Assembly (NCBI GenBank): GCA_051885355.1
Contig: JBJEXC010000002.1
Coordinates: 10,496-74,495 of the forward strand
Direction: 5' to 3'
Origin: Alphaproteobacteria bacterium
GTDB taxonomy: Bacteria; Pseudomonadota; Alphaproteobacteria; Rs-D84; CACZYB01
DNA: 64,000 bases
Of the stretch, positions 29,997-58,970 are shown one piece after another. Position numbers and translations under genes: made by a program. The notes below the pieces were generated by a model. That model saw nothing but the letters and a program-made list of their open reading frames with translations, was not told the DNA's origin and did not search any database. How positions within the stretch are numbered: the first letter of the stretch is position 1; every line of letters begins with the position of its first letter.

Positions 29997-30005
29997 TTAC
30001 TTTCC

Positions 30006-30299: not shown

Positions 30300-30367
30300 T
30301 ATTCCCCCCTAAATACTTATAGTAAATTTTATATGAAAAGCCTTTAAAATACAAGTAAAAATTCTAT

Positions 30368-37483: not shown

Positions 37484-39910
37484 ATGTTAAAATTATTTGC
37501 TGAAAAATTTGGTATGGGGGGGGGTAAAAACCCTGTAAAATCAAATAGTTACAAAAACTTTGCAATCTGTCTTTGTTTAATATTTTTTATATCTCTAACT
37601 ATATTTGCTTTGTCTGGTTCTGTGAATGCGGCAAGAAATGTTAGAGGTAACAGAAATGGTGGTGTTAAAAAAACAAGTGGGGCAAAGAAAGCAGGTAATG
37701 TTAATAAATCTAATAGTAGTTCAAATAAATCTATACCTGTAAATGCTAATAGGAAGGCTAGAGCGGCTGTTACTAATAAAAGGTCTGCGACTTCAGGTAA
37801 TGCAAAAAGGGCTGGCGTTTCTGGAAATGTTAGAAAGGCTAGAGTGGTTTCTGCTAGAAAGACTGTTAATAATAGGGCGTTAAGAGGAAAAATAAAAGCC
37901 GAAGAGGAAGCAAGTTTGGAAGAGACAGAAACTTTATCCTCAGAAGTAGTAAATAAGATGTCTGAACATGATAGAAAATTTAAAAAATTAGCTGAGTTGA
38001 AAGGTTTGGCAAACGACTGTCCTGTTGAAAAGGCTCTTGGTAGAAAAATTGATGAAGATGGTGATGAATTTTTCTATACAGGAAAAGAACCTTTTAATGG
38101 AGAAAATTTTTGTGATGAAAGACTTATATTATCTAATCAAATTGCTGATTTATATAAATGGAAAGAAAGTGACAAAGAAAAATATCCTAGGGGTAGTTTG
38201 GATGATAGTGATGAAATTTTTTATTTTAAATGTAAGGAAGGTTATGTTGCTAAAAATAACAGTGATGGTATAAGGACTTGTGTATCAGTTTGTCCTTTGA
38301 ATGTTGCTTTGGAAAAAAGTGCAAGTTATGAAGATAAATATATTTCTCCAACAAATGGTTTGATTTGTTCTGTTCCAGCAAATTCAAAAGCAAGACTTGT
38401 CAAAGATGGTGAAAATACAAGAAGTGATTTGGATGATGAAAATGCTTATATAGTAGAATGTAATGCAAATAAATATTCTGCTGTGTTAGATGGTTCTGAT
38501 TCGGAAGTGCATTATCAATGTTTGACTTGTCCAAGTGGGTATGTGTCCTCTGCTGGTGCAAAATCTGTTGCTGAATGTAAGGAAGAATGTAAAGGGGATA
38601 AGATTAAACTTGATGATGGAAGTTGTGTTGCTTGTGATGCGAATGCTTCTGTATCGGGTAATTCCTGTATCTGTAAAGATGGTTATTATGGTAAGGGATA
38701 TGGAACTGATGGATGTGTGACTTGTCCTTCTGGATATGTATGTTCTGGTGGTGAAAAGAAATCCAAATATGTAAGTGAACAGGCGGAAGAAACATCATCC
38801 AATGAACAACAATCTTGTCCAGAGGGTTCAAAACCTTCCTCTGATGGCACAACTTGTGTTTGTGATGATAGTAATTATACTTTTGATTCAAAATCCAATA
38901 GTTGTGTGGAAAAAGTTTGTGGTTCAAATGAAGTTAAAATGTCAGATGGAACTTGTAAAGCAATATCTAGTTTGGTTGCATCTGAATTTAACAGAGTTGC
39001 CACAGGAAAATCTGGTAATTCCAATTGTCCAACTGGTGATTTGGAGGCTGGTGTCTACTTAGTTACACTTAAAGGTGGTAATGGTGGAAACAGCGGTAGT
39101 AGTGGAAAAAATAAGGCTGGTCAAACAGAGAAAGATGTTTCCGGTGGAAAGGGTGCAAAATTGCAATATGTATTTAAGTTGAGTAAAAATGCAACTTTTG
39201 AAATTTGTGCCGGTGAAAATGGTAAATTGCCTGCTGATACAGATTCTCCAAATGAAGGAGGCGGTGGCGGTGGTGGATCATGGCTTAACATTAATTCACC
39301 TGAATTTTCTGGCGATGTCTACTTTGTTGCCGGTGGTGGTGGCGGTGCATCCGCAGACTATGCTGGTCAAGACGGCGGTGGCGGCGGTGGCGGCGGCGGT
39401 ATTGGTGCCGGTGGTGCTGCTGGTGAAGGTAAAGGTTATAGTTATGGTGGTTACGGTGGTATGAGTGGAAAATACCCTGGTGGAGTATACAAGCAATATA
39501 ATGATAATAATAAAAGTGGTGTAACAAAACTTTACGGTTACATACCTGATATTGCGAAGGGTTTAAATGACAGTAATCCGCTTTTGATGGGTGATTCTGG
39601 TAGAAGCGGTGGTGGTGCCGGTGGTGGAAATGGTGGTGACGGTGGTGACGGTCAAGAATGGTTTGGTAACGCTAATTGTGCAAAGGGTGCTGTTGCAAAT
39701 ATAGATACTATAAACATTATTGACTTTGACGGTAAAGTTACAAAGCAAAGCCAACAATACGGTGGTAAAGGTGGTGTTGCTTGTCAAGCCTCTCACCATA
39801 GAGCCGGATATGATGGTGAAAGTTCACATATTTCGAATATAAACCTTTCGAATTTATGTGGTGGAAGCAATAAGGCTGATGCCTGTGCTGAACTTTACAA
39901 GTTAAAATAA
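37484..39910 (+). CDS. large secreted/anchored protein: basic low-complexity region, Cys-rich ephrin-receptor/TNFR-like repeats, C-terminal polyglycine-rich (ALK/LTK GlyR-like) domain
   Basis: 808 aa. TM/signal segment at aa 26-48, then a K/R/N-rich stretch. More than 40 Cys in CxxCPSGY-type repeats, for example TCVTCPSGYVCSGG. The C-terminus has G6-G10 runs spaced by short beta-like strands (YVFKLSKNATFEICAGENGK / EGGGGGGGSW / VYFVAGGGGGAS / GGGGGGGGGIGAGG). Confidence 0.6.
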   Translation: MLKLFAEKFGMGGGKNPVKSNSYKNFAICLCLIFFISLTIFALSGSVNAARNVRGNRNGGVKKTSGAKKAGNVNKSNSSSNKSIPVNANRKARAAVTNKRSATSGNAKRAGVSGNVRKARVVSARKTVNNRALRGKIKAEEEASLEETETLSSEVVNKMSEHDRKFKKLAELKGLANDCPVEKALGRKIDEDGDEFFYTGKEPFNGENFCDERLILSNQIADLYKWKESDKEKYPRGSLDDSDEIFYFKCKEGYVAKNNSDGIRTCVSVCPLNVALEKSASYEDKYISPTNGLICSVPANSKARLVKDGENTRSDLDDENAYIVECNANKYSAVLDGSDSEVHYQCLTCPSGYVSSAGAKSVAECKEECKGDKIKLDDGSCVACDANASVSGNSCICKDGYYGKGYGTDGCVTCPSGYVCSGGEKKSKYVSEQAEETSSNEQQSCPEGSKPSSDGTTCVCDDSNYTFDSKSNSCVEKVCGSNEVKMSDGTCKAISSLVASEFNRVATGKSGNSNCPTGDLEAGVYLVTLKGGNGGNSGSSGKNKAGQTEKDVSGGKGAKLQYVFKLSKNATFEICAGENGKLPADTDSPNEGGGGGGGSWLNINSPEFSGDVYFVAGGGGGASADYAGQDGGGGGGGGGIGAGGAAGEGKGYSYGGYGGMSGKYPGGVYKQYNDNNKSGVTKLYGYIPDIAKGLNDSNPLLMGDSGRSGGGAGGGNGGDGGDGQEWFGNANCAKGAVANIDTINIIDFDGKVTKQSQQYGGKGGVACQASHHRAGYDGESSHISNINLSNLCGGSNKADACAELYKLK
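37516..37524 (+). repeat. G9 homopolymeric tract in the 5' coding region
   Basis: atGGGGGGGGGt encodes MGGGK; nine consecutive G in an ~30% GC genome. Confidence 0.8.
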
Positions 39911-39934: not shown

Positions 39935-39960
39935 TCGCCCTTTTGTGGGGCGATTTTTTT
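39935..39960. terminator. bidirectional rho-independent terminator
   Basis: tcgccc-ttttgtg-gggcga hairpin followed by T7; sits between the convergent Gly-rich gene and yraN. Confidence 0.6.
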
Positions 39961-40958: not shown

Positions 40959-41089
40959 TTTAAATCCTTTGTTTTTATTTCCTTATATAATTATAGATAA
41001 TAATATTATTTTGTTTTTTCAAGTATAAAAAAACTTTTAAATCTTTTATTTTTTTGGTATAATGTGTTTTATGTGTTATGGAGGGTTAA

Positions 41090-44841: not shown

Positions 44842-44853
44842 TTTTCCCCTTTG

Positions 44854-46695
44854 TTATTTCTTAACATACTTTAGAAGGGATGTCAAGGCGGCAGGGGTTA
44901 TTCCAGGTATTCGTGAAGCAGAGGCAAGAGTTTCTGGTTTTGTAGTTTTAAGTTTGTTTTTTACCTCTAATGTAAGACCGCCTATTTTATCATAATTAAT
45001 GTTTGCTGGGATTTTTAGGCTTTGATCTTTTTTGTATGCCTCTATATCCTTTTCTTGTCGTTTAAGATAGCCTTGATATTTACCCTCTATTTCAATTTGT
45101 TTTACGATAGAATTTTCAAAGGTATCAATTTTTGGGAAAAGTTTTCTTAATACTACCATATCAATTTCAGCATAGCGGAGGGCATCGTATAAATTTTTTC
45201 CGGCGATGCCTGCGACATTGATATTGACACTTTTAAGTAGTTTAAGATTTAGTTTGTGGGAGGTTAAGAATTTTTTAAAATCCTCCATCTTTTTAATTTT
45301 TTCATTAAAAAAGCCGGCTCTTTTGTTACTTACTACACCAATTTTGATACCGATAGGGGTTAGTCGTTGGTCGGCGTTGTCCGCCCTTATAGAAAGGCGA
45401 TATTCGGAGCGGGAGGTGAACATTCGGTATGGCTCATCTACACCAAGGGTTGTAATATCATCAACTAAGACACCAATATAAGCTTGGGAACGATCAAGTG
45501 TGATTTCATCACAACCCTTTGCGAAAAGTCCGGCATTGATACCGGCGAGTATTCCCTGTGAAGCGGCCTCTTCGTATCCGCTGGTGCCATTTATTTGACC
45601 GGCAAAGTAAAGTCCCTTTATTCGTTTAGAACCCAAAGTTGGTTTTAATTCTCTTGCATCAATTGCATCGTATTCAATTGCGTATCCATAGCGAAGAATT
45701 TTTACATTTTCCAAACCCTTTATAGAGTGGATAAAGTCTTCTTGCACATCCTTTGGAAGGGAAGTTGAAATACCGTTTGGATAAATGACATCGGAGCCAT
45801 AACCTTCTTGTTCCAAAAATATATGATGAGATTCGTGATGGGCGAATCTGACAACTTTATCCTCTATACTTGGGCAATATCTAGGTCCAATAGATTTTAT
45901 TTGTCCGTTATAAAGTGGGGTTCGGTCCTTATTATCAGTAATAATTTTATGGGTTTTGAGATTTGTATAAGTGATGTAGCAAGGAAGCATTTCTTGACTT
46001 ATTTTTTCGGTCATATATGAAAAAGCCTCTGGCACTTCATCACTTTCTTGGCATTCAAGTTCGGAGTAATTAATAGTTTTTTTTGAAAGGCGAGCAGGGG
46101 TTCCAGTTTTAAGTCGTAAAATGGAAAAGCCGGCTTTTTTGAGCGATTCTGTTATTCCGTAGGAGGCATTTTCACCAATTCTTCCACCTATGGTTTTTTC
46201 CTCTCCCGTATGCATAATGCCATTTAAAAATGTTCCGGTTGTAAGGACAACTGACTTACAATCTATTTGTCTTTTGGATTTTAAAACAACACCATTTACA
46301 GATGAAAAATCGTTATTAAATAAGATTTCAATAACTTCATCTTCTATTATATCAAGGGTTTTATATTCTGATAGAATTTCGTTGACTGCTTTTTTATAAA
46401 GGGTTCTGTCTGCTTGTGCTCGAGGGCCTTGGACTGCGGCACCCTTTGATGCGTTAAGGACACGAAATTGGGTTCCGGCTTTATCAATAGCCCTTGCCAT
46501 AACACCATCTAAAGCATCAATTTCACGGACAAGATGACCTTTCCCCAAACCACCGATAGATGGGTTACAACTCATTTCGCCAATATTTCCTTTTGAAAAA
46601 GTTATAAGGGCGGTTTTTTGCCCTAATCTTGCAGAAGCACTTGCTGCTTCAATACCTGCATGTCCGGCACCGACAACAACTACATCGTATTCCAT
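44854..46695 (-). CDS. mnmG: tRNA uridine 5-carboxymethylaminomethyl modification enzyme MnmG (GidA)
   Basis: 613 aa; FAD-binding YDVVVVGAGHAG; characteristic MnmG sequence. Confidence 0.9.
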   Translation of the reverse strand: MEYDVVVVGAGHAGIEAASASARLGQKTALITFSKGNIGEMSCNPSIGGLGKGHLVREIDALDGVMARAIDKAGTQFRVLNASKGAAVQGPRAQADRTLYKKAVNEILSEYKTLDIIEDEVIEILFNNDFSSVNGVVLKSKRQIDCKSVVLTTGTFLNGIMHTGEEKTIGGRIGENASYGITESLKKAGFSILRLKTGTPARLSKKTINYSELECQESDEVPEAFSYMTEKISQEMLPCYITYTNLKTHKIITDNKDRTPLYNGQIKSIGPRYCPSIEDKVVRFAHHESHHIFLEQEGYGSDVIYPNGISTSLPKDVQEDFIHSIKGLENVKILRYGYAIEYDAIDARELKPTLGSKRIKGLYFAGQINGTSGYEEAASQGILAGINAGLFAKGCDEITLDRSQAYIGVLVDDITTLGVDEPYRMFTSRSEYRLSIRADNADQRLTPIGIKIGVVSNKRAGFFNEKIKKMEDFKKFLTSHKLNLKLLKSVNINVAGIAGKNLYDALRYAEIDMVVLRKLFPKIDTFENSIVKQIEIEGKYQGYLKRQEKDIEAYKKDQSLKIPANINYDKIGGLTLEVKNKLKTTKPETLASASRIPGITPAALTSLLKYVKK

Positions 46696-46715
46696 AGTAT
46701 AAGCCTTTTAAAAAA

Positions 46716-47399
46716 TTATTTAGTATTAGATACTATTATATCCTTAATTTTTAAAATATCATTAACTTTATCAATAATTGCGATAGGATTTTCTTTTTTT
46801 AGCATATTTTTATTTTCTGGAATTTCATAGCAAACGCCTATACCCATTCCATTTAAGTTTTTTGCAAGTTGTATATCTTTTTTACTATCGCCAACAGTAA
46901 AAATTTGTTCTGTTTTATCAATGCCTGATTCATTCATCATATAATGAACAGGAATAGGTGAAGGTTTATCGTTTATGAATCTTCCTGCCAGTGTGCCAAT
47001 TACATTTATAAAGTATTTTCGAATGTTTAAATATTTTAGAAGTTCGGAGGTAGATTCTGTATCTCTGCTTGTGCAAACCATAAGTTTATAATCAAGTTCA
47101 AATAAAATTTTTAATAAGTTTTCAATATTTGGAAAAAGTTTTATTTGATTGTAGAATTCCTTGGTCATTTCTATTTGTATAATGTCGGGTATGATTTGTT
47201 TTTCATAAATTTCTTTTTGAGTTTCCAAATCTATACCATCAAAAAGTTCTTTGTCTTTCCAGACGGAGTGAATTTCTTTTAAACCTTCTATTGTTTTAAA
47301 GGAAAGTTTTAAATTATTAATAACAGAGGCAGTTGCCCATGCGAGTGGATATTCTCTTTCAACCAAAGTTCCGTCCATATCAAATACGACAACTGTCAT
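46716..47399 (-). CDS. HAD-superfamily hydrolase
   Basis: DMDGT motif I (VVVFDMDGTLVE) and C-terminal GDSKKD motif. Confidence 0.6.
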   Translation of the reverse strand: MTVVVFDMDGTLVEREYPLAWATASVINNLKLSFKTIEGLKEIHSVWKDKELFDGIDLETQKEIYEKQIIPDIIQIEMTKEFYNQIKLFPNIENLLKILFELDYKLMVCTSRDTESTSELLKYLNIRKYFINVIGTLAGRFINDKPSPIPVHYMMNESGIDKTEQIFTVGDSKKDIQLAKNLNGMGIGVCYEIPENKNMLKKENPIAIIDKVNDILKIKDIIVSNTK

Positions 47400-47404
47400 T
47401 TTAA

Positions 47405-48175
47405 TTATCTTTCGTTTATTAAAGAATCTATTATTTGTGGAATTTGTTTTATATCATCTGTTGATGAAAGTATTGCATTTGGTTTATGAAGTTTTATTTC
47501 TTCAAGAGTAGTTATATCACCATAACCAACGCCTATTGTTTTCATACCTGCATCATGTCCCATTTTTATATCGCCTGATGTATCGCCAATCATAACTGAT
47601 TTTTCAAGTGGGATGCCAAGTTCTTGTGAAATATAATTTACGATTTGGGTATGTGGTTTATCCTTGAAATGTTTACCACCTTCGGTTGCTTCTACTATAT
47701 CAAAATATGAAAATAGTGCTTCGCGTTTTAAAATTTTTATTATAGAATATAAATCACGGGAGGAAGCAATAGCCAATTTTATATTTGTTTTTGCAAGTTG
47801 CTTTATTACCTCACGCATACCATTGTAAAGTTTTACTTGATTAAGAAATTCTTCCTGATTGCATAATTTTGTGCTAAGTGGAGAAAATTTGTTATGAAAT
47901 ATAGATAGTTGTTCGTTAAAATCTTTTCCCCAACCTATATACTTACTTAATGCTAAAGAGTAGACTTTTTTTGCAATTTGTTCTGTGTATGGAAGTTTTA
48001 GTATATCCATTGCTTTTTTGTTAAGGTTTAGGAACATAGCGTTACTGTGAACTAATGTTTCATCAAAATCGAAAACGACAAGTTTTTCTTCTTTATGTTG
48101 TGGTGTGTTTAGTTCATAAATACTTTTTCCAGCAAATTTGTTTCTTAAATATTTATCTTTTTCTGTTGCATTCAT
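47405..48175 (-). CDS. HAD-superfamily hydrolase (phosphatase-like)
   Basis: DFDET motif I and GDTSGD motif; in tandem with the previous HAD gene. Confidence 0.6.
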   Translation of the reverse strand: MNATEKDKYLRNKFAGKSIYELNTPQHKEEKLVVFDFDETLVHSNAMFLNLNKKAMDILKLPYTEQIAKKVYSLALSKYIGWGKDFNEQLSIFHNKFSPLSTKLCNQEEFLNQVKLYNGMREVIKQLAKTNIKLAIASSRDLYSIIKILKREALFSYFDIVEATEGGKHFKDKPHTQIVNYISQELGIPLEKSVMIGDTSGDIKMGHDAGMKTIGVGYGDITTLEEIKLHKPNAILSSTDDIKQIPQIIDSLINER

Positions 48176-48233
48176 TTTGTAATCCTACTAATATATTATT
48201 ATTAAAATTTATACAAAATATTAAACAAAGGAA

Positions 48234-51200
48234 ATGATTATGTCAAGTAAAAATTATCCAGAAACTATGTCAAAACCAAATTTCCCTGAAATAGAGGAAA
48301 AAATTCTTGCTTTTTGGAATAAAGAGAAGATTTTTGAACGTTCTGTTGATGAGCGTGATGAGAAGAATGAGTTTGTTTTTTATGATGGTCCTCCGTTTGC
48401 AAATGGGCTTCCTCACTATGGTCATGTGTTGCAAAGTTATACAAAGGATACTGTTGCCCGTTATCAAACTATGAAGGGGAAAAAAGTTAATCGTCGTTGG
48501 GGATGGGATTGCCATGGGCTTCCTCCGGAACTTAAAACCGAAAAGGATTTAGGTATAAGTGGTAAAAAAGCGATAGAAGAGTATGGTGTTGATAAATTTA
48601 CTGATAAATGTGGGTGTGATGTTTTAACCTATGCTAATAATTGGAAGGGAATTATCAACAGACTTGGTCGCTGGGTTGATATGGAAAATGCTTATAAAAC
48701 TATGGATAAAGAGTATTCTGAAAGTATTATGTGGGCCTTTAAAACTCTTTATGAAAAGGGACTTCTTTATGAAGATTTTCGTATTCTTCCATATTCTTGG
48801 GCGGCGGAAACTCCTCTTTCTAATTTTGAGGTTAATCAAGGGTATAAGGATAAAACTGATACTACTGCGACAGTAAAGTTTAAGTTGGAAAATGGGCTTA
48901 CACTTCTTGTGTGGACTACTACCCCTTGGACTTTGCCATCAAATTTGATGCTTGCAACAGGAGCGGATATTGAATATACAATCTTTGAGCGTGATGGTGA
49001 GAAGTTGGTTCTTGCAACTGCTCGTGTTCCTGCTTATAAGAAAGAATTAGAGGGTGCCACACCAACAGGCACAATTATGGGTTCAGAATTGAAGGGAATT
49101 CATTATACTCCACTTTTCCCATATTTTGAAAATTATCGTAATGAATATGATACTTTTCAGGTATTAAATGGGGATTTTGTTTCAACAGAGGATGGAACAG
49201 GTATAGTGCATATTGCTCCTGGGTTTGGTGAAGACGATTTTGCACTTTGTAAGAATTTTAATCCAAACTTTCCTATACTTTGTCCTGTGGATTCCACTGG
49301 AAGTTTTAATGCAGAAGTGAAGGATTTTAAGGGCAAGCAAGTTTTTGAAACTAACGATGAAATACTTGCAAGGTTGAAGGCTGAAAATAAATTATTTAAA
49401 AAAGACCAAATGGTTCACTCCTATCCATTTTGTTGGAGGACTGACAAGCCACTTATTTATAAAGCAATGAGTTCTTGGTTCGTCCGTGTGTCTGATATAA
49501 AGGATAAGTTGATTGAGGCAAATCAATCTATTACCTGGATTCCTGAGCATATTAAAAATGGTCGTTTTGGTAAATGGTTGGAGGGAGCAAGAGATTGGTC
49601 AATTTCTCGTAACCGTTTCTGGGGTGCACCAATTCCAGTTTGGAAATCGGATAATCCAGAATATCCAAGGATTGATGTGTTTGGTTCAATTGCTGAACTT
49701 GAAAAGGCAAGTGGTATGAAGGTGGAAAATCTTCATCGTCCACACATTGATAAAATTACATATAAAAATCCAGATGATCCAACAGGAAAATCTATGATGG
49801 TTCGTGTTCCTGATGTCTTTGATTGTTGGTTTGAAAGTGGAAGTATGCCATTTGCATCTTGCCATTATCCATTTGAAAACAAAGATTGGTTTGAAAAGAA
49901 TTTCCCAGCCGATTTTATTACAGAGGCGACAGACCAAACTCGTGGTTGGTTTTATACTCTTGTTGTGATGGGGGTTGCTTTGTTTGGAAAGGCTCCATTT
50001 AAAACTTGTGTATGCTCTGGTTTTGTTTTTGATGAAAAAGGGCAGAAGTTATCAAAAAAGCTGGGTAATTACTCTGAGCCAACAGAATTTTTCAATAAAT
50101 ATGGCTCTGATGCGTTCCGCTGGCTTCTTCTTTCATCTCCACTTTTAAGAGGGGAGATTGCTCGTATTTCGAAAGAGGGGGTTGAAGTTGCAACTACTGC
50201 AAGAAAATCTCAAATACCATTTTATAATGCGTATCATTTCTTTACTTTGTATGCGAATGCTGATGATATAAAGGCGGTTTATGATTTATCTTCTGATAAC
50301 ATAATGGATAGATATATAACTGCAAAACTTGATGAATTAAAGGAAAGTGCAAGTTTGACGCTTGATAAATATGATATTGCGACTTTCTGCACTAAGGTTG
50401 AAAAGTTCCTTGATATACTTAACAATTGGTATATTCGTCAAAGTCGTGAAAGATTTTGGGGAACAAGTGTTGATAGGGCTACTCAGCAAAAGGCCTTTAA
50501 TACACTTTATTCCGTTCTTATTGATTTATGTAAGATAATGGCTCCGCTTATGCCATTTATAACTGACTTTGTGTATAAAAATTTGACAGGTGAAGATTCT
50601 GTGCATTTGGCTATGTATCCTCAATCAAGTGGTAAGTTTGATAAGGATTTGATTGAGGCTATGGATATGGTGCAAGATGTTTGTTCCGCAGTGAAAAATA
50701 TTCGTGAGGAAGTGGGCATACGCAATCGCCAACCTTTATCCTCTATGACTGTTGCATCGCCAAAGGAGGAAATTTTAAAACCATATTCTGATATTATAAA
50801 GGCTGAATCTAATGTAAAGGAGATAGTCTTTACTGATGATATTGATAAGTATGCAAAGAAACTTCTTTACATTTATACACCTATTGTTGGAAAGAGGTTA
50901 GGTAGAGCGTTGGCTGAAATTCAAAAATCTGCGAAGGCGAATGATTACAAAATTGAAAATGGCGTTTGTAAGATTGCAGGGTATGAACTTACCCCAGATG
51001 AATTTGAAATTAGGGTTGAAATTTTGGGTGATGTAAAGGGTAGGGCGACATCTGATAATTCGGCTGTTGTTATACTTGATACAAAAATTACACCAGAACT
51101 TCAAGTAGAAGGAATAATCCGTGATTTCATTCGTGCGATACAAGAAGAAAGAAAATCGCGTGATTATAATGTTTCTGACAGGATTGAACTTTCATATTAT

Positions 51201-51350
51201 ACAAATGATAAATCAATTATTGATGGTATGGAAAAGTTTGAAAATGAAATATCATCAACTGTGTTATCAACAAAGTTTGAGTTGGCAAGTTTGCCTTTGA
51301 CGGTCAAAATTGATAATACGGATTTAAGTTTTGATATAAAGAAAGTGTAA
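48234..51350 (+). CDS. ileS: isoleucyl-tRNA synthetase, type 2 (eukaryote-like)
   Basis: 1038 aa; HYGH (HIGH-class) motif, WDCHGLP, KLSKKLGNY (KMSKS-like). The length and C-terminal extension are typical of the type 2 IleRS seen in Rickettsiales. Confidence 0.9.
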   Translation: MIMSSKNYPETMSKPNFPEIEEKILAFWNKEKIFERSVDERDEKNEFVFYDGPPFANGLPHYGHVLQSYTKDTVARYQTMKGKKVNRRWGWDCHGLPPELKTEKDLGISGKKAIEEYGVDKFTDKCGCDVLTYANNWKGIINRLGRWVDMENAYKTMDKEYSESIMWAFKTLYEKGLLYEDFRILPYSWAAETPLSNFEVNQGYKDKTDTTATVKFKLENGLTLLVWTTTPWTLPSNLMLATGADIEYTIFERDGEKLVLATARVPAYKKELEGATPTGTIMGSELKGIHYTPLFPYFENYRNEYDTFQVLNGDFVSTEDGTGIVHIAPGFGEDDFALCKNFNPNFPILCPVDSTGSFNAEVKDFKGKQVFETNDEILARLKAENKLFKKDQMVHSYPFCWRTDKPLIYKAMSSWFVRVSDIKDKLIEANQSITWIPEHIKNGRFGKWLEGARDWSISRNRFWGAPIPVWKSDNPEYPRIDVFGSIAELEKASGMKVENLHRPHIDKITYKNPDDPTGKSMMVRVPDVFDCWFESGSMPFASCHYPFENKDWFEKNFPADFITEATDQTRGWFYTLVVMGVALFGKAPFKTCVCSGFVFDEKGQKLSKKLGNYSEPTEFFNKYGSDAFRWLLLSSPLLRGEIARISKEGVEVATTARKSQIPFYNAYHFFTLYANADDIKAVYDLSSDNIMDRYITAKLDELKESASLTLDKYDIATFCTKVEKFLDILNNWYIRQSRERFWGTSVDRATQQKAFNTLYSVLIDLCKIMAPLMPFITDFVYKNLTGEDSVHLAMYPQSSGKFDKDLIEAMDMVQDVCSAVKNIREEVGIRNRQPLSSMTVASPKEEILKPYSDIIKAESNVKEIVFTDDIDKYAKKLLYIYTPIVGKRLGRALAEIQKSAKANDYKIENGVCKIAGYELTPDEFEIRVEILGDVKGRATSDNSAVVILDTKITPELQVEGIIRDFIRAIQEERKSRDYNVSDRIELSYYTNDKSIIDGMEKFENEISSTVLSTKFELASLPLTVKIDNTDLSFDIKKV

Positions 51351-51356
51351 AAAATT

Positions 51357-51382
51357 TCCCCTCACTAAAGGGGATTTTTTTT
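51357..51382. terminator. bidirectional rho-independent terminator
   Basis: tcccct-cactaa-agggga hairpin followed by T8; the stop of the convergent minus-strand gene abuts it. Confidence 0.6.
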
Positions 51383-52172
51383 ACCTTTCTTTGTTTTGTA
51401 TTTTAAACAGAATATTATTAAAGTTTTCTAATTTATTAGATATATGTATTTTTTTATTTTCATTTTTTGAAAGAAATTCTGAACCAATATAGGTTGCTGA
51501 TGGAAGATAAATTTTTTCCATTATTTTATTATTATAAAGAACAAAATTTCCAATATATTTTGCTTTTGGAACATTAAGTATTTTCATATTTTTATTATTG
51601 AAAAATGCGGTATCTGAAATTTTTAGTGCATTTGGGAAATTTGCTTCCTCTAAATCTTTATCAAGATATAAAAATGATGTTGGAATTTCTTTTGCTTTTG
51701 TAAAATTGATACGGATTAATTTATTATCCTTTACTTCAACAATCGGAGACCCATCTGCTGCAATAATTTTTTTACCGGTTACATCAAGTCCAAGATATGA
51801 GATGATACTTACTGTTTTATTTTTAATTTCATTATTAAATACTTTTACAAAAGAATCGCTATGATTTTTTTCTGTTATAACCTCATTTTTTAAAGTAGAT
51901 AATCTTAATGACAATAAATCAGTTAAAGTATTTTTTTCCAAGTTGAATAAGAAATGTGAAAAAATAATTTCATTTGATTGTAATTCGTGAAGTGCTACTA
52001 AGTCGTTATCTTGAATTACAAAAGTATTACTGTTTGTAAAGATAGATGTATATGTATTAAAATATTCTTTATCTGTAAAAATGGTATCTCTAATATCCTT
52101 AAAATATATTCTTGTTGTATCATTTTTATAATTTGGTTTGATGATTGTATCTGATAATTTGAAAATTTCCAT
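51381..52172 (-). CDS. hypothetical protein, possible BspA-type leucine-rich-repeat (LRR_5-like) protein
   Basis: The C-terminal half has repeated I..AF..N..L..I.LP....IG..F-like units (ISDTAFFNNKNMKILNVPKAKYIGNFVL…IYLPSATYIGSEFL). Confidence 0.35.
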   Translation of the reverse strand: MEIFKLSDTIIKPNYKNDTTRIYFKDIRDTIFTDKEYFNTYTSIFTNSNTFVIQDNDLVALHELQSNEIIFSHFLFNLEKNTLTDLLSLRLSTLKNEVITEKNHSDSFVKVFNNEIKNKTVSIISYLGLDVTGKKIIAADGSPIVEVKDNKLIRINFTKAKEIPTSFLYLDKDLEEANFPNALKISDTAFFNNKNMKILNVPKAKYIGNFVLYNNKIMEKIYLPSATYIGSEFLSKNENKKIHISNKLENFNNILFKIQNKER

Positions 52173-52275
52173 TTTGATCTCTTTTTGGTTTTGTATATAT
52201 ATTATTAAAGAGAGAATGAAAAGTAAAGAAAAAAAGGGACTTAAAAAAGCCCCCTTCTTATTAGTTTATAAAGTG

Positions 52276-53157
52276 TTAAGCGTCGGCTTCTTCCTTATGT
52301 TCAACACCATCACCAACAGCAAAGCGAATAAATTTTACAATCTTTGCATCGTCAGATATTGATTTAACAACATCTTTGATTTTCTTTGATGGTTCCATAA
52401 AGAATGCTTGTTCGGTTAAAACAACTTCTTCGTAATATTTGTTGATTCTTCCGTTAATCATCTTTTCAACTATTTCAGCAGGTTTTCCAGATTGCATTGC
52501 TGTATCACGGAAAATTGCCTTTTCACGTTCAAGAGAAGCCTCATCAACATCAGCAATATTTAAGAATGCAGGAGCAGATGCAGCAATGTGCATTGCAATG
52601 GTGTCGCCTACTTCCATAATTTTTGCTTTGTCAGCAGATGATTCAATTGCAACAAGAACAGCAATCATACCCATACCTTCTGCGACACGGTTGTGAATGT
52701 ATGAAATAACTGCGCCGTTTGAAACTTCAACCATATCACTTCTACGAATATTAAGGTTTTCACCGATAGTTGCAATTTCATTTGCTAAAGCATCAGCAAC
52801 TGGCATACCATCAATAGTTGCGGATTTGATTTTTTCAATGTCGCCATTTTCGTTGTATGCAACATCAGCAACTTTTTTAACGAATGCTTGGAATTTTTCG
52901 TTTCTTGCAACGAAGTCAGTTTCAGAGTTTACTTCAACAACAACACCTTTGTTACCTTCAACTTTAACAGCAACAACGCCGGCAGATGCTTCTCTGTCAC
53001 CCTTTTTAGCAGCCTTTGATAAACCTTTTTTTCTCAAGATATCAATTGCGGCTTCTATATCACCATTTGCTTCAATAAGTGCCTTTTTACAATCCATCAT
53101 TCCGGCACCGGTTCTTTCTCTTAAATCTTTAACTAAACTAGCAGTAACTTCTGTCAT
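52276..53157 (-). CDS. tsf: elongation factor Ts
   Basis: 293 aa; N-terminal UBA-like LVKDLRERTGAGMMDCKKAL; conserved rpsB-tsf order. Confidence 0.9.
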   Translation of the reverse strand: MTEVTASLVKDLRERTGAGMMDCKKALIEANGDIEAAIDILRKKGLSKAAKKGDREASAGVVAVKVEGNKGVVVEVNSETDFVARNEKFQAFVKKVADVAYNENGDIEKIKSATIDGMPVADALANEIATIGENLNIRRSDMVEVSNGAVISYIHNRVAEGMGMIAVLVAIESSADKAKIMEVGDTIAMHIAASAPAFLNIADVDEASLEREKAIFRDTAMQSGKPAEIVEKMINGRINKYYEEVVLTEQAFFMEPSKKIKDVVKSISDDAKIVKFIRFAVGDGVEHKEEADA

Positions 53158-53158
53158 A

Positions 53159-53917
53159 TTATGCCTCCTTTTTTACTTCAACTTTTGGGTTAAGTGCAGC
53201 ACCTATATCAGCACCAGATTTTTTAAGTTGTTCTTCTAAGCCGTCAAGAACAGCCTTTACTGCTAAATCACAATAAAGTTTGATTGCCTTGATTGCGTCA
53301 TCATTAGCAGGAATTGGGAAGTCAACATTGCTTGGGTCAGAATTTGTATCGCAAATTGCAACAACTGGAATGCCAAGTTTGTTTGCTTCTACAATAGCCA
53401 AATCTTCTTTACTTGCATCAATTACGAAAATTATATCAGGAGCGCCGTTCATATCCATAACACCGCCAAGAACAGCCTTTAATTTTCTAAGTTCAAGTTC
53501 CATTTTTGCGATTTCTTTTTTTGTAAGACCTAATTTGTCAGCATTTTCAATATCAGATTCCATTCTTTTAAGTTTTTTAATGGAATTTACAACTGTTTTC
53601 CAGTTTGTAAGCATACCACCTAGCCAACGAGTATTGATATAGTATTGTCCGCACATTTCAGCAGATTCGCGAACTATATCTTGAGCTTGTCTTTTTGTTC
53701 CAACGAATAAAACTTTACCACCGTTTGCGGCAACATTTCTTAATGCAACAAGACCAGCGTGTAGCATAGGAACAGTTTTTTGTAGGTCGATAATGTGAAT
53801 CTTATCTTTTACACCGAAGATATATGGTGCCATTTTTGGGTTCCAACGACGAGTATGATGTCCGAAGTGGCTTCCTGCTTCAATAAGTTCTTTCATAGTA
53901 AATTTAGGGAATGTCAT
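53159..53917 (-). CDS. rpsB: 30S ribosomal protein S2
   Basis: 252 aa; S2-typical sequence (…LIEAGSHFGHHTRRWNPKM…). Confidence 0.9.
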   Translation of the reverse strand: MTFPKFTMKELIEAGSHFGHHTRRWNPKMAPYIFGVKDKIHIIDLQKTVPMLHAGLVALRNVAANGGKVLFVGTKRQAQDIVRESAEMCGQYYINTRWLGGMLTNWKTVVNSIKKLKRMESDIENADKLGLTKKEIAKMELELRKLKAVLGGVMDMNGAPDIIFVIDASKEDLAIVEANKLGIPVVAICDTNSDPSNVDFPIPANDDAIKAIKLYCDLAVKAVLDGLEEQLKKSGADIGAALNPKVEVKKEA

Positions 53918-54144
53918 TTTTGTATCCTTTCATTTTTTATTAGTTATCCCTCTATTCAACGAACCGATTTCTCGGACTAAACGGCAATTTCAAAAGGAAA
54001 AGTACCAATGTTGAATATGTGTATTTATCTTTATAAGAATAAAGATTTATAAAAAATAGTGCAAATTGGAAAAAAAGTCAAGTAAAATCATTAAAAAGAC
54101 TTGCAATTTTAAAATTTTTGGGATATAAATCTTTACATCTTTAT

Positions 54145-54222
54145 GGCGAATGTAGCTCAGTTGGTTAGAGCGCCAGTTTGTGGTACTGGATGCCGCCAGT
54201 TCGAATCTGGTCATTCGCCCCA
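54145..54222 (+). tRNA. tRNA-His (anticodon GTG) with G-1
   Basis: GGCGAATGTAGCTCAGTTGGTTAGAGCGCCAGTTTGTGGTACTGGATGCCGCCAGTTCGAATCTGGTCATTCGCCCCA. Has the extra 5' G pairing with discriminator C, which is the His identity element. Anticodon loop is TTGTGGT. Confidence 0.85.
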
Positions 54223-54240
54223 TTAAAGAGATTGTGCTTT

Positions 54241-54325
54241 GGGAATGTGGCGGAATTGGTAGACGCGGCGGACTCAAAATCCGCTGGGGCGACCCTTGAG
54301 AGTTCGATTCTCTCCATTCCTACCA
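54241..54325 (+). tRNA. tRNA-Leu (anticodon CAA), long variable arm
   Basis: GGGAATGTGGCGGAATTGGTAGACGCGGCGGACTCAAAATCCGC…GAGAGTTCGATTCTCTCCATTCCTACCA. Anticodon loop is CTCAAAA. Confidence 0.85.
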
Positions 54326-54426
54326 AAAATTTTAAGTAAAGGCGATTGCCAAACGAGGATACAAACTTACAATTCTAAAATTCCTCACTATCGCCGTTCG
54401 TCGTTAAGAATTATTCGCGTTTGTGT

Positions 54427-54443
54427 TCTCTGATTCCTACCAA
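54427..54443 (+). other. possible tRNA-Leu 3'-end remnant (ttctctgattcctacca)
   Basis: 15/17 identity to the last 17 nt of the tRNA-Leu(CAA) gene 102 bp upstream (ttctctccattcctacca). Immediately followed by a terminator. Confidence 0.3.
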
Positions 54444-54450
54444 AGTTAGA

Positions 54451-54479
54451 ATCAGCATTTTTTAGTGCTGATTTTTTTT
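54451..54479 (+). terminator. rho-independent terminator after the tRNA pair
   Basis: atcagca-ttttttag-tgctgat 7-bp stem followed by T8. Confidence 0.6.
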
Positions 54480-54752
54480 ATAAATTTTTTTGTAGTTAAA
54501 AATTTATCTTGATAATTGTCTTTATTATTTGTATTATAAAATTAGTTTTGCATAACAAAACTGGGGCGTAAGAACCTCTAAAATAAAAATGGATTACCAT
54601 CCGGCCTTTGTTAAAGGCTGGAAGGTGATAAAATAAGTTATATGTAGTTTTATGTATAACGAATATATTACGCTATTTTATTTTATAGTTCTTAACTTCC
54701 AGTCGCTATGTAAAACGCAAGCGATTTTTTAAAAAAAGAGGGAGAAAAGAAC

Positions 54753-55043
54753 ATGAACAAAAAATTTTATATATTTCTGTGTGTATTTTTAACAAATTTT
54801 CTATCAATAGATGTATTTGCAAATAACTTGGATAATTTGCTTTTGCAATATTGTGTGCCAAGAGAGGGTAGTTGCATAAATAAAGCAACATACTCTAATG
54901 GTAAATGTGTCTGTTCTGGAAAATCTTTGTATATAGATAGGGAATGTTATGCCCCTAAATGTCCGTCAGGAACTTATATATATTACAGGAATGATACGGA
55001 TTCTTGTGGTGCAGGCAATTCTAGGACAAAGATGAAAAATTAA
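54753..55043 (+). CDS. small secreted Cys-rich protein, truncated paralog of the Cys/Gly-rich family
   Basis: Signal peptide MNKKFYIFLCVFLTNFLSIDVFA, then 10 Cys including a CPSGTY motif shared with the 55237 and 37484 proteins. It stops after 96 aa. Confidence 0.5.
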   Translation: MNKKFYIFLCVFLTNFLSIDVFANNLDNLLLQYCVPREGSCINKATYSNGKCVCSGKSLYIDRECYAPKCPSGTYIYYRNDTDSCGAGNSRTKMKN

Positions 55044-55064
55044 GAAGTTATGGGAGGAAGTTTA

Positions 55065-55090
55065 TCATGGTCTTCGCTTCCTCCCTCCCG
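55065..55090. repeat. inverted-repeat copy of the family gene-start cassette (partner at 56383..56406)
   Basis: The reverse complement cgggagggaggaagcgaagaccatga matches cgggagggagaatgaagaccatga at 56383-56406. It is also internally palindromic (gggaggaag…cttcctccc). Confidence 0.55.
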
Positions 55091-55236
55091 AAAAATATGG
55101 AGGAGAATATGAATGAGAAATTTAATCAGCACATAAGGAATTAAGTGATTGCGGTCACCTCTTCGGAGGGCTGGGGGTGATTGCTTGCTGATGGGATATG
55201 CTCTCAAAATTTTATTAACAAAAAAAGGAGAAAACT

Positions 55237-56232
55237 ATGAACAATAGAAAATATATTATATCGGCAATAACTTTGTTGAGTTTTGCTGGAATTGCACATT
55301 CTGCGATTTATCAGTGTAGGACTTGTCAAGAGGGAACTTATAGTGATGGAACAAGCACAAGTTGTACGGCGTGTCCGTCTGGGGCTGTGTGTCCAGAGGG
55401 AACTGGGGCACCAATTTATTTATCCAAATATAAAGATAAAATATTTTCAGCATGTGGAGAAATAGGTAAAGATTTTGTTAAGAATGGGACTATTTCGTGG
55501 AAAAAATATTATTCATCAGACTTTATTATTGATATGCGTGATAGGCAAAAAGTAAAAATAAATTCTGATGGAAATATAATTAAAAAGGGAGCAAGTGGTT
55601 ATAATTCCGCACGAGCATATCATGAAGTTAATTGTTATGACCTTGATGGGTATTATGAAAGTGATGGATATAAATCTGTTGTAGATGAGATTCATGGTCT
55701 GTGTGGTGATATTGTACAAATATCGAAATTTACCACAGGAAGTGGTAGTTTTACTTTGTCCCCTGGAATATATTATATTAACATTGGTGGCGCCGGTGGT
55801 GGTGGTGGTGGCGGACATTATTGTCCTGAATTTATGCATATTATACATAAAGATGGTGGTAATGGAGGAAGTGGAGAATACATAAGCAAGGTTATTTATA
55901 TATTAAAATCGACTTCATTTTCTTATAATGTTGGTACAGGAGGAAATGGAGGAAGTGGTAGAAGATGTAGCTGTTCTGATGCGGGAGAGCGCGGTGGAAA
56001 TTCATATGTATCTAATACTCTTCTTTCTTTATCAATTACAGCAAGAGGTGGTGCCGGTGGTGGACGAGCATGTGAAAGTGGAAGCACAGATGCTACAGAT
56101 TTAGGATTAGGAGGAAAAGGTGGTCTCGGTGGAAAAGGTAGTAAAACGGGTCACTATGATAGAGGAAGTAATGGAGAAAATGGTTACATAGAAATTAAAC
56201 AATTTATATATAGTCAATGGTGTGCCAAATAA
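55237..56232 (+). CDS. secreted Cys-rich / polyglycine-rich (ALK/LTK GlyR-like) protein, paralog of the 37484 gene product
   Basis: Signal peptide (…GIAHS/AI), CRTCQEGTY…CTACPSGAVCPEGT Cys-repeat, then IYYINIGGAGGGGGGGHY…GGNGGSG…GGNGGSG…GGAGGG…GGKGGLGGKG glycine runs. Confidence 0.6.
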   Translation: MNNRKYIISAITLLSFAGIAHSAIYQCRTCQEGTYSDGTSTSCTACPSGAVCPEGTGAPIYLSKYKDKIFSACGEIGKDFVKNGTISWKKYYSSDFIIDMRDRQKVKINSDGNIIKKGASGYNSARAYHEVNCYDLDGYYESDGYKSVVDEIHGLCGDIVQISKFTTGSGSFTLSPGIYYINIGGAGGGGGGGHYCPEFMHIIHKDGGNGGSGEYISKVIYILKSTSFSYNVGTGGNGGSGRRCSCSDAGERGGNSYVSNTLLSLSITARGGAGGGRACESGSTDATDLGLGGKGGLGGKGSKTGHYDRGSNGENGYIEIKQFIYSQWCAK

Positions 56233-56237
56233 AAATT

Positions 56238-56264
56238 TTCCCCTCTTTGTAGGGGAATTTTTTT
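56238..56264 (+). terminator. rho-independent terminator
   Basis: ttcccct-ctttgt-aggggaa hairpin followed by T7. Confidence 0.55.
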
Positions 56265-56393
56265 AAGAAAAAAATCCGAGTCACATATTTTGCTTTTCAT
56301 TTTATAAATATTTTGGTATTATTTTTTTAGCAAGGAATGGTTTTTTATGTTATTTGTTTTTTCCTTTGCTGTTCCTTGTTATCGGGAGGGAGA

Positions 56394-56477
56394 ATGAAGA
56401 CCATGAACAAGTTTTATTCTTTTCCTGAGAAAAAAAGGGAGAGGTTTTTGTTAGCCTCTCCCTTTGATTTTAGTTGA
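56394..56477 (+). pseudogene. gene-start fragment of the Cys-rich family (27-aa ORF MKTMNKFYSF…)
   Basis: Strong SD gggagggag followed by ATG…ATGAACAAG TTT TAT, paralleling the starts of the 54753 (MNKKFYIF) and 55237 (MNNRKYII) genes. It terminates after 27 codons. Confidence 0.3.
56430..56462 (-). terminator. rho-independent terminator of infB (minus strand)
   Basis: gggagagg…cctctccc 8-bp stem; on the minus strand it is followed by U7 (plus-strand aaaaaaa at 56430-56436). Confidence 0.55.
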
Positions 56478-56486
56478 TAGATTTTG

Positions 56487-58970
56487 TTAAAGAGTTGCCT
56501 TTACCTCTTCTACCTCAAAACATTCTAGGCGGTCGCCAACTTGGATATCGTTAAAGTTTTCAAATGAAATACCGCATTCCATACCGGAGCGGACTTCTTT
56601 CACATCGTCCTTCATACGTTTAAGTTGAGCAAGTTTGCCTTCGAATATAACTATGTTGTCGCGAAGCATACGAACTCCACAACCTTTTTTGACTATACCC
56701 TCGGTAACCTTACAGCCGGCAGCCTTTGCCTTTCCAGCATTGAATACTTGAAGGACATCGGCATAACCTATAAAGGTTTCCTTTGTAATAGGGGCAAGAA
56801 GACCTGACATAAGAACCTTTACATCATCAATAATGTTATAGATGATTGAGTAGTATCTTATATCCACTTCGTCATGGTGGGCTTGTTCCTTTGCATTTGT
56901 ATTTGCGCGAACATTGAAAGCGATGATAACTGCGCCAGTTGTTTTTGCAAGGGTTACATCGGATTCGTTTATACCACCAACACCGGAGTGCATAACTTTG
57001 ACCTGCACCTTTTCAGATGGAATTTTGATTAAAGATTCTGCAATTGCTTCGGCTGAACCTTGGGTATCTGCTTTAATAATAACAGGTAGGGTTTCTGCAC
57101 GCCCTTCCTTGATATTTTGGAAAAGTTCTTGCCAGTTGGATTTTTTCGCAATCATTTGGCGTTCCTTTTCCTTTCTTTTACGGTAATCGGATACTTCGCG
57201 GGCCTTTGCCTCTGATTCAACAACTACGAAATCGTCACCTGCAACAGGAGTTCCCTCAAATCCCAAAACTACAACTGGTTTTGATGGGGTTGCTTCGGTT
57301 ACTTTTTTTCCGTATTCATCAAGAAGTTCGCGAACGCGTCCGGTTGAGGAACCTGATACGAAAATGTCGCCCTTTTTAAGTGTTCCTTTTTGGATTAAGA
57401 TTGTTGCGATGGAACCTTTACCCTTTTCCATTTTTGCCTCTATCACAGCGCCCTTTACATTGCCGTTATAGTCAGCCTTTAATTCAAGCATATCTGCCTG
57501 TAAAAGGATAAGTTCTTCAAGTTTATCTAAGTTAATTTTTTGTTTTGCGGAGATTTCAACATCCAAAACTTCACCACCCATTTTTTCAACAACTACACCT
57601 TGTTGAAGAAGGTCCATACGAACCTTTTCTGGATTTGCATCAGGTAGGTCGATTTTGTTTATTGCAACTATCATTGGGACATTTGCAGCCTTTGCGTGGT
57701 TTATAGCCTCCACAGTTTGAGGCATAATACCGTCGTTTGCGGCAACAACCAAAATCACAATATCGGTGATGTTGACACCGCGGGCACGCATTGCGGAGAA
57801 AGCCTCATGTCCTGGAGTATCAATGAAAGTAATTTTTCTTCCGGATTTAGATTTGATTTGGTATGCACCTATGTGTTGGGTGATACCGCCTGCTTCACCA
57901 CTTACAACATCAGTTTTACGGAAAGCATCAAGAAGTGAGGTTTTACCGTGGTCAACATGTCCCATAACTGTGACAACTGGTGGACGAGATTCTAAGTTTT
58001 CGGATTTTGTATCCTCGGTTAAAATTTCCTTTTCTATATCGGAATCGGATACACGTTTTACGGTATGACCAAATTCCATTACAATAAGTTCGGCAGTGTC
58101 GGCATCAATTATTTGGTTGATTGTTGCCATAATGCCTAGTTTCATCATAGTTTTTATGACATCACTGCTTTTTTCAGCCATACGAATAGCAAGTTCCTTT
58201 ACGGAAATAGTTTCTGGAAGTATGACTTCGTGATAAGTTTTTACAACTTCCTTTGGTTCCTGACGTTCCATAAATTTACGGTATTGCTTTTCCTTTTGTC
58301 TTTTTATTGAGGCAAAAGAGCGACGTTTTTGATAAACACCGACAACTTCCATTGCGGAGGTAAGAGAGTTTGATGGACCTTCGGAAGATTCATCATCGTC
58401 GTCTTCGAAATCTAAATCACTGCTGGAAACTATGATATTAGAAAAGTTAATTTTTTTATTATCATAAGATTTCTTTTTGAAATTTTTTTCATCATCAGAG
58501 GATTTTGATTTTTTGTTTTTGTATTTGTCGTTATTATCTTCCTCTTCGTCATCATCTTCGTAAGAAGATTTGTTTTTGGATTTTTTCTTATCAGAATAGT
58601 TTTCCTTTGGGGAAGAAACTTCTTCTGGTAAAGATTCAGGAGTTGATAATTTTTCTTCCTCTTTCTTTTTATTTAATTCAATTTGTTCAAGACGTTCCTT
58701 TTCAAGAAGGGCGAGACGTTCTTGTTCTGCCTTTTGTATTATGGATTGTTCTTCCTTTGCCTCTTCTTCAAGACGTTTTGCATTCTCAAGGATATTTTTT
58801 AATTTATCTGTTTTTTGAGCATCAAATTTTGATTGTGCGGAATCAGTTTGAGAAGAGGTATTTTCAGCAGTTGAAAAAACACGTCTTTTCTTTATAACTT
58901 CAACTTCCACACCGTCCTTGCGAGGGGAAGATATTTTTGTTCCAAGTTTTAATGTTAATTTTCCAGCCAT
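56487..58970 (-). CDS. infB: translation initiation factor IF-2
   Basis: 827 aa; GTPase G-domain [28 protein letters not shown]; acidic/basic low-complexity N-terminus. Confidence 0.9.

Follow-up and report, generated by a model that had tools for sequence, protein, structure and literature searches.

Two genes for secreted proteins, one small (96 residues) and one large (331 residues), lie between a tRNA-Leu gene and infB in a 64,000-nt stretch of DNA from an Alphaproteobacteria bacterium (contig JBJEXC010000002.1; hereafter the window), together with start-like sequence cassettes in both orientations. Such 5′ cassettes invite a reading as programmed DNA rearrangement; here they behave as fixed elements. 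Their best explanation, held with moderate confidence, is that they are RNA-level control parts of the two-gene operon, and that antigen variation arises elsewhere. That the elements act at the level of RNA, and not as DNA recombination substrates, can be said with good confidence. Shown directly are the sequences, their conservation, predicted structure and complementarity, two genes in an apparent operon, and module-level allelic replacement in the second gene; that the non-coding unit behind the large gene is transcribed, that any pairing takes place in vivo, and its effect on regulation are inferred. Two things are new here, namely a conserved RNA motif, and a secreted bacterial protein with a strain-swapped glycine-rich domain of the tail-fibre type.

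The host belongs to an uncultured, metagenome-only lineage of gut alphaproteobacteria. Related loci (designated L001, L004 and so on) were drawn from human-gut and other gut-type metagenome assemblies; they include a Hadza gut metagenome-assembled genome (MAG; L010) and the MAG Mgla_MAG_30-bin_7 (L011).

Start-like cassettes and the conserved non-coding elements

The spacer between the small and the large gene is termed IG1, and that between the large gene and infB is termed IG2. A sequence-only reading of the window had placed an inverted start cassette in the first and a forward copy in the second, and its sequences and coordinates are correct: the reverse complement of 55065-55090 is cgggagggagGAAGCgaagaccatga, and 56383-56406 reads cgggagggagAATgaagaccatga on the forward strand. 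The 15-mer GAAGACCATGAACAA, with up to two mismatches, has four matches in the 64 kb against 0.31 expected, so the repeat is not due to chance. All four fall within the locus (54746+, 55061−, 55230+ and 56396+); two are gene starts, and the others belong to the inverted and the third copy. These four ‘start cassettes’ are in fact three different things: two real starts, a part of a stem-loop, and a part of a conserved unit in IG2.

In principle, all four copies could be independent instances of the genome’s preferred Shine–Dalgarno (SD) sequence and start context. For the two real gene starts this appears largely true; clpP and an outer-membrane-protein gene carry AGGAGAAAAnTATGAAT, at most two mismatches away from the large-gene start, so the likeness of the two starts can be attributed mostly to a strong start context that is general in this genome. 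The inverted and third copies go beyond this. They share 10 + 11 identical bases with a 2-nt indel; TCGGGAGGGAG and GAAGACCATGA are exact in both, separated by GAAGC and AAT, respectively, and have no other occurrence in the 64 kb. One of the two copies also lies on the non-coding strand, and neither begins a conserved open reading frame (ORF). The sequence-only reading had itself allowed that the repeats might be only a shared SD and start context; this holds for the two real starts and is contradicted for the inverted and third copies, and as an account of all four it is improbable.

The inverted cassette belongs to a stem-loop, of which it makes up the loop, the 3′ arm and the tail. This stem-loop starts 8 nt past the stop codon of the small gene and pairs GGGAGGAAG(U) with (G)CUUCCUCCC (−16.7 kcal/mol, z −2.6); every homologue examined has it directly behind the stop codon, at a distance of no more than about 10 nt. 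A covariance model, R1, was built from five versions of this stem-loop; it matches behind the small gene in L035, L036, L037, L038, L019 (two copies) and, weakly, L001. In L037 and L038, neither of which was in the training set, the motif scores 70 and 72 bits directly after the stop of small-gene homologues that were found only by profile search (E = 1e-5 and 5e-4). Altogether, eight distinct versions located directly after the stop score 70–83 bits; the L001-type version has drifted (19 bits). The conservation of the stem-loop far exceeds that of the neighbouring coding sequence and protein; in other words, an RNA motif is kept near base for base behind small secreted genes that have diverged to profile-search-only similarity. 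Its consensus reads UAUGGGAGGAAG, a U-run, GGUUCAUnGUCUUC, n and CUUCCUCCCUCCCGA, with the unpaired half of the loop and the tail conserved as strongly as the stem. In the R1 alignment, which is model-fitted and includes one minus-strand start-region match, 98.7% of stem cells are paired, and five of nine pairs show double changes (in two divergent versions). A search of Rfam 15 over 53900-56600, with E up to 1, returned only tRNAs and sub-threshold infB-terminator matches and left the stem-loop unmatched; at about 55–65 nt, it is a conserved RNA motif not described before that goes with a family of small proteins. An integron attC-like cassette boundary was also considered; no integrase was found among the Pfam domains of window ORFs of at least 120 aa.

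Read on the opposite strand, the motif resembles a start region: its reverse complement is GGGAGGGAGGAAG..GAAGACnAUGAACC followed by an A-run, and the minus-strand matches of R1 (E ≤ 0.1) comprise only family gene starts, IG2 and the motif’s own palindrome. One arm of the stem-loop is SD-like and the other anti-SD. Pairing was assessed from duplex scans of 35–45 nt only; long-sequence RNAduplex runs were set aside because they extended the duplexes unrealistically. Among 53 gene starts in the window, the small gene’s own is the best predicted partner of this anti-start element, with −21.5 kcal/mol against a mean of −9.8 kcal/mol (sd 3.9).

The gene in front of the stem-loop is intact. Both of the ORFs that had been proposed here, of 96 and 331 aa, are confirmed, but the shorter is not the truncated paralogue of the longer that it was taken for; the two proteins have in common only a signal peptide and a CPxGT motif, and the rest is not significantly similar (E = 0.079). 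Small-gene orthologues at four other loci (101–113 aa) end at a common ...CGAGN.RTK..N stop, and dN/dS values of 0.19–0.31 indicate purifying selection (comparisons with L008 were discarded, because an internal stop codon corrupted the codon alignment). A full-database profile search recovers a small standalone family of 104–127 aa with the same Cys pattern, and also finds the small-protein module repeated within large proteins. The 96-aa protein is identical to the NCBI MAG protein ACI4N3_00750. The possibility that the small gene ends in a −1 frameshift site, with A AAA AAT and a hairpin, was considered and rejected; L036 lacks the slippery sequence, and the window has an imperfect form of it.

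The third copy lies in the second conserved element. IG2 is present in every locus of three lineages, in the same place and orientation, and is invariant within each species, even beside a gene that is only 80% identical. Across the three lineages 70% of its columns are invariant, compared with 51% at 4-fold sites of infB/nusA (P = 2e-6), and two blocks are invariant throughout (24/24 and 14/14). Three stem-loops are predicted for the 147-nt IG2 RNA (−50.9 kcal/mol, z −4.9). Pairing is kept by all four substitutions in the 5′ arm of stem-loop 1, which is weak evidence because they are all transitions opposite G or U. Over both strands of the window, the best non-self duplex partner of the IG2 cassette segment is 55051-55095, within the stem-loop behind the small gene (−43.6 kcal/mol, z −8.2), and in L022 the stem-loop is likewise the top non-self target of IG2 (z −6.6). 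On sequence grounds, IG2 is a candidate small RNA of ~145 nt (56329-56475), flanked by a promoter-like site and a terminator hairpin that are both kept in the three lineages. The 27-codon ORF that had been noted as headed by the cassette does exist, from 56394 (+), but it is not a conserved gene-start fragment: its counterparts have seven codons in the L005-type and six in the L001-type lineage (from the second ATG, the first being lost), and a conserved peptide is thereby ruled out. A scan of JGI metagenomes with the IG2 core TTCCTTTGCTGTTCCTTGTT gave unrelated chance matches only; the host lineage seems to be absent from that collection.

It is conceivable that the inverted and third copies are functionless relics of duplicated gene starts in a recombination-prone islet. 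The third copy in the window would encode MNKFYSF, close to MNKKFYIF of the small gene; IG1 holds further start-like mini-ORFs, with a comparable SD-ATG mini-ORF of other length and non-conserved peptide in relatives; and the gene content of the islet differs between strains. Relics are, however, expected to decay at least as fast as synonymous sites, whereas the hairpin is far better conserved than its adjacent coding sequence across deep divergence, and the two fully invariant IG2 blocks stand against the 51% of 4-fold sites. This explanation is accordingly unlikely.

If the elements act on RNA, the following scheme can be drawn. In the operon mRNA, the anti-start element would be either locked in its own hairpin or paired with a start region, for which the small gene’s own start would be the best real partner in the window; such pairing would adjust how the two cistrons are translated or how stable they are. 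The stem-loop may thus fold back on a start region, stabilise the upstream cistron or do both. If IG2 is transcribed, its mimic of a start region could pair with the anti-start element, relieving or altering the control. A circuit of this kind would set the ratio of the small Cys-rich protein to a hypervariable, tail-fibre-like adhesin, and the hairpin would represent a new class of conserved RNA motif tied to a gene family. This specific circuit of start, anti-start and decoy, which is built on predicted complementarity, is put forward tentatively.

Several points weigh against such a role. The large gene’s own start is a poor predicted partner in the window, and part of the anti-start likeness is unavoidable, because any CCUCC-rich arm complements any SD sequence. 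The stem-loop might more simply stabilise the 3′ end between the cistrons or terminate transcription in part, and the data fit this equally well. The IG2 promoter is a consensus match only, and such matches are no commoner than in shuffled sequence; with only three diverged versions of IG2, there is little covariation support for its structure. In the L001-type lineage, where the stem-loop has drifted, IG2 no longer ranks it as a target, and no copy of IG2 was found in the flanks of L036 or L037; pairing between IG2 and the hairpin is therefore no universal requirement.

Variation of the large gene between strains

The 331-aa protein comprises a signal peptide, an ephrin-receptor/TNFR-like Cys repeat (for which Pfam matches are sub-threshold), a middle domain and a C-terminal glycine-rich domain (~residues 169–325), the last being hypervariable between strains. 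This domain matches Pfam Gly_rich_2 (PF21722) with 39.9 bits against a cut-off of 24.3 (residues 169–314), and its fold is similar to those of solved glycine-rich domains. The glycine-rich domain of Pam3 is described as having a glycine stem that is conserved and a receptor-binding tip that is hypervariable (PMC9608196); this description fits the variation pattern of the 331-aa protein.

Pairwise comparisons locate the variation. Between L001 and L004, infB/nusA are 99.5% and IG2 100% identical; the small gene is 90% and the large gene 80% identical. In a sliding comparison of L001 and L008, the difference is confined to a glycine-rich module of ~400 nt and the C-terminal GGCSSGGYF repeats, at 40–60% identity, with sharp borders around the module. 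Between L022 and L019, nearly the whole mature large protein differs; IG1 and IG2 are near 100% identical. Alleles of the large gene are mosaic, with the ~400-nt module replaced between strains whose flanks are 99.5% identical, and the 27 alleles comprise two module types plus variants in C-terminal repeat number. In infB the synonymous divergence dS is 0.018; for the small gene it amounts to 0.25, and for the glycine-rich part to 0.76. These raised values in the variable segments imply that old alleles were imported between strains by homologous recombination, rather than generated by fresh mutation. A TCA-to-TAA nonsense allele is present in eight contigs from several samples; in L008 (2719-3777), the nonsense allele splits the large gene into ORFs of 62 and 258 aa.

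Antigen-type variation arises via module replacement, C-terminal repeat number, gene gain and loss, and nonsense alleles, and not via the cassettes. The sequence-only reading had suggested a variable surface-antigen system, and a variable system of surface or secreted proteins is indeed supported; the cassette mechanism attached to it is not. It had pointed to related genomes for variation in copy number or fragments: the locus is not invariant, as the 80% identity of the large gene between L001 and L004 illustrates, but the arrangement of the cassettes is constant in the loci fetched from three lineages. A phage-like receptor-binding glycine-rich module is swapped between near-identical gut strains; the 331-aa protein is a natural candidate for recognition of host, phage or neighbour in a lineage known from metagenomes only.

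The use of start cassettes as recombination or gene-conversion substrates was weighed in two forms. In the first, the inverted repeats 55065-55090 and 56383-56406 would flip the large gene off and on. They do bracket this gene, and three independent short-read contigs (L026, L027 and L028 of the Logan set) end at one and the same base inside the hairpin loop (...CATGGTTCATTG). This break point, however, matches neither of the predicted recombinant junctions, and in the samples with broken left contigs the right contigs run intact through the large gene and IG2 into infB. The continuing contigs from two of the three samples (L031 and L032) begin ~100 nt further on, at a G+C-rich hairpin; heterogeneity in a 7-nt repeat or G-run is a possible cause of the breaks. 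Wherever a fetched locus covers the features concerned, its arrangement is the same in all three lineages: in these assemblies, infB lies on the strand opposite to the small gene, the large gene and IG2. At 10 + 11 nt, with an interruption between, the repeats are short; in the L001-type lineage their match has largely decayed. Both in the window and in the L005-type lineage, the IG1 copy has GGAAGC where the IG2 copy has AAT, so that the copies follow their orthologues across species and are not being homogenised. Pfam domains of integrases, resolvases or invertases were not found in window ORFs of at least 120 aa or in the syntenic flanks. Of the hallmarks of an inverton, flanking inverted repeats are thus present; a second orientation and a nearby recombinase are not seen, and an invertible switch is very improbable.

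In the second form, the expressed gene would be converted from silent cassettes, as in pilE/pilS or vlsE, with the short ORF and the 27-codon fragment as silent 5′ fragments. The mosaic alleles with their sharp borders are compatible with this, and glycine-rich modules of related type do occur at a second locus, but with only 68% nucleotide identity. The short ORF is, however, an intact gene of a different family, and the fragments contain start-region sequence only, ~35 nt at most; the variable module, which lies inside the coding sequence and away from the cassettes, is not represented in them. Searches with both genes (tblastn and blastn) against the 64-kb window detected no silent copies and only a distant gene for an 808-aa protein, and the dS values of 0.25–0.76 against 0.018 point to import between strains, not to conversion within the genome. 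Silent-cassette conversion is scarcely credible here.

Setting of the locus and a second Cys/Gly-rich locus

The locus is a small strain-variable islet that extends from tRNA-Leu to infB and contains a two-gene operon for secreted proteins, in a window with ~32% G+C (Table 1). The gene order is tsf and rpsB (−), tRNA-His, tRNA-Leu, the 96-aa and 331-aa ORFs, then infB, nusA and rimP (−). The upstream tRNA pair had been recognised before and is confirmed by ARAGORN, with Rfam matches of 67.7 and 58.4 bits; in L001, L005 and L011, too, this tRNA-Leu lies in front of the locus. After tRNA-Leu, the window and L005 are 93% identical. A scan of species-representative genomes with the large-protein alignment returned two loci only. 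In L036, the pair of small gene and glycine-rich gene recurs in a different genomic context. In L011 and L019, three extra genes are found between tRNA-Leu and the small gene (L019 3045-4678, equivalent to L011 1350-2986): a second copy of the small gene, which has a hairpin of its own and a G10 tract; a gene for a 97-aa secreted protein; and one for a Cys-repeat protein of 269–281 aa.

Table 1. Positions of features in and around the islet
Feature	Position	Strand	Remarks	Basis
Gene for 808-aa protein	37484..39910	+	Cys repeats and Gly-rich C-terminus	
tRNA-His(GTG) and tRNA-Leu(CAA)	54146-54222 and 54241-54325	+	upstream edge of variable islet	ARAGORN
Insert of ~112 nt and terminator-like hairpin	54326..54475	+	insert directly after tRNA-Leu; hairpin at 54448-54475	sequence reading, terminator scan
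Sigma-70-like promoter	54509..54537	+	TTGATA-17-TATTAT; ~210-nt leader to small gene follows	promoter scan
Small gene, intact	54753..55043	+	96-aa secreted Cys-rich protein	
Conserved stem-loop motif	55044..55098	+	stem 55052-55061 / 55076-55085; holds cassette 55065-55090	
Forward start-like mini-ORF	55097..55144	+	GGAGGAGAATATGAATGAG...	
G+C-rich structured leader segment, then large-gene start module	55148..55236	+	module TTTTATTAACAA...GGAG...ATGAACAAT	
Large gene	55237..56232	+	331-aa secreted protein	
Intrinsic terminator of operon	56238..56257	+	conserved in all lineages	terminator scan
Conserved non-coding unit IG2	56294..56475	+		
IG2 extended −10 promoter-like site	56294-56322		TGnTATTAT kept in all three versions	
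IG2 stem-loop 1	56329-56380			
IG2 stem-loop 2			carries forward cassette 56383-56406	
IG2 terminator	56434-56465		common with infB	
infB	56487..58970	−	conserved downstream border of islet	

The insert directly after tRNA-Leu is present in the window and in L005-type and L001-type loci and missing from L011 and L019, where tRNA-Leu abuts the terminator. In the window (54326-54447) it ends in a degenerate copy of the tRNA-Leu 3′ end, and in L005 a 22-nt direct repeat of the tRNA 3′ end, with one mismatch, is located at its end. To judge from these sequences, it looks like the footprint of a tRNA-integrated element, or else a 3′-trailer RNA.

The 5′ leader of the small gene (54540-54752) is long, conserved and hairpin-bearing; in one of its stems, both sides differ between the window (AUGG...CCAU) and L005 (ACGG...CCGU), and in the L001-type lineage the leader is shorter and different. 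The start module of the large gene is conserved in comparison with L005, L037 and L038. G+C-rich palindromic hairpins occur in these A+T-rich genomes at L005 5745-5790, L036 5380-5690, L037 3505-3545 and 55148-55185 of the window. Several have a poly-G loop, CCCGCAAGGGGGGGGGTAAGGG, the length of which differs by strain (G5 in L019, G6 in L022, AGGAGGGGGG in L021); the related stem in the window has a UUCG loop.

On a larger scale, comparison of 39950-54240 with L001 gives the L001-type order gidA, radical SAM, PBP, folD, grpE, UPF0102, tRNA-Leu, small gene, which is the outcome expected from inversion of this ~14-kb block. One end of the block lies just 3′ of the 808-aa gene, the other in the 18 nt that separate tRNA-His from tRNA-Leu; each breakpoint thus adjoins one of the two Cys/Gly-rich loci. 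At 27561-30775, a gene for a VirB4/TrbE-like ATPase adjoins one for a Ros/MucR-family regulator.

The gene at 37484 had been regarded as a further paralogue; it is a distant, domain-level relative (~23% identity) and not a close one. Its 808-aa product is identical to the NCBI MAG protein ACI4N3_00675. At best, the two glycine-rich loci match each other with 68% identity over 601 nt, which rules out recent gene conversion between them. Positions 37516-37524 form a G9 tract between an internal ATG, which it directly follows, and the signal peptide; no other G/C run in the window exceeds 6. L033 and L034 keep G9 at the same codon position, in frame in the former and out of frame in the latter, so that the L034 gene is called from an internal Met; this frame difference stems from a 1-nt change just downstream of the tract, all three tracts being G9. 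In L019, no G/C run of 7 or more exists besides the G10 tract of the second small-gene copy, and contig L028 starts exactly at G10. Both tracts are outside 54700-56480. Slippage in poly-G probably switches these related genes on and off.

Relation to known systems

Like invertons and shufflons (Hin, Fim, invertible promoters of Bacteroides), the locus has inverted repeats that bracket a surface-protein gene of a gut bacterium; unlike these, it shows no recombinase and no second orientation, and its repeats are short, interrupted and, in one lineage, decayed. With pilE/pilS and vlsE it has mosaic expressed alleles in common; promoterless partial copies were not found in the 64 kb.

Homopolymer contingency loci are known from Campylobacter, Haemophilus and Neisseria. 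The G9 and G10 tracts resemble them in lying early in coding sequences of secreted proteins, as length outliers in a genome of 32% G+C, with the tract site kept in relatives and both in-frame and out-of-frame states seen. The likeness is limited to the 37484 gene, for which all three tracts are G9, and the second small-gene copy of L019; it does not extend to the genes of 54700-56480.

The glycine-rich domain of the 331-aa protein is akin to the receptor-binding domains of the tail fibres Pam3 gp24 and Bxb1 gp33, and to human ALK. In contrast to tail fibres, the protein is chromosomally encoded, bears a signal peptide and is fused to ephrin-receptor-like Cys repeats, and no phage genes are nearby.

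Two kinds of RNA-level control offer parallels. Stem-loops between cistrons stabilise the upstream message in the puf operon of Rhodobacter and, as REP elements, in malE-malF. Here, too, a stable hairpin lies between operon cistrons, directly 3′ of the upstream gene, and could give the small-gene segment of the mRNA a longer life than that of the large gene. In those systems only structure is conserved, whereas in the present motif the loop and the unpaired 3′ tail are conserved near base for base.

Translation of neighbouring cistrons can also be coupled by fold-back inhibition, as in hok mRNA, and by SD/anti-SD switches. As in hok, an element on the 3′ side complements the mRNA’s own start region, and a local hairpin would compete with long-range pairing; the element directly follows a stop codon, a place where ribosomes that terminate would melt the hairpin. 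Unlike in hok/sok, there is no toxin, no Sok-type antisense RNA over the start and no sign of 3′ processing, and the proposed trans partner, IG2, would be a sense mimic rather than an antisense RNA. A three-part riboregulatory circuit composed of a real start, a cis-acting anti-start hairpin and a trans-acting start decoy may, as a rather doubtful possibility, be one not described before.

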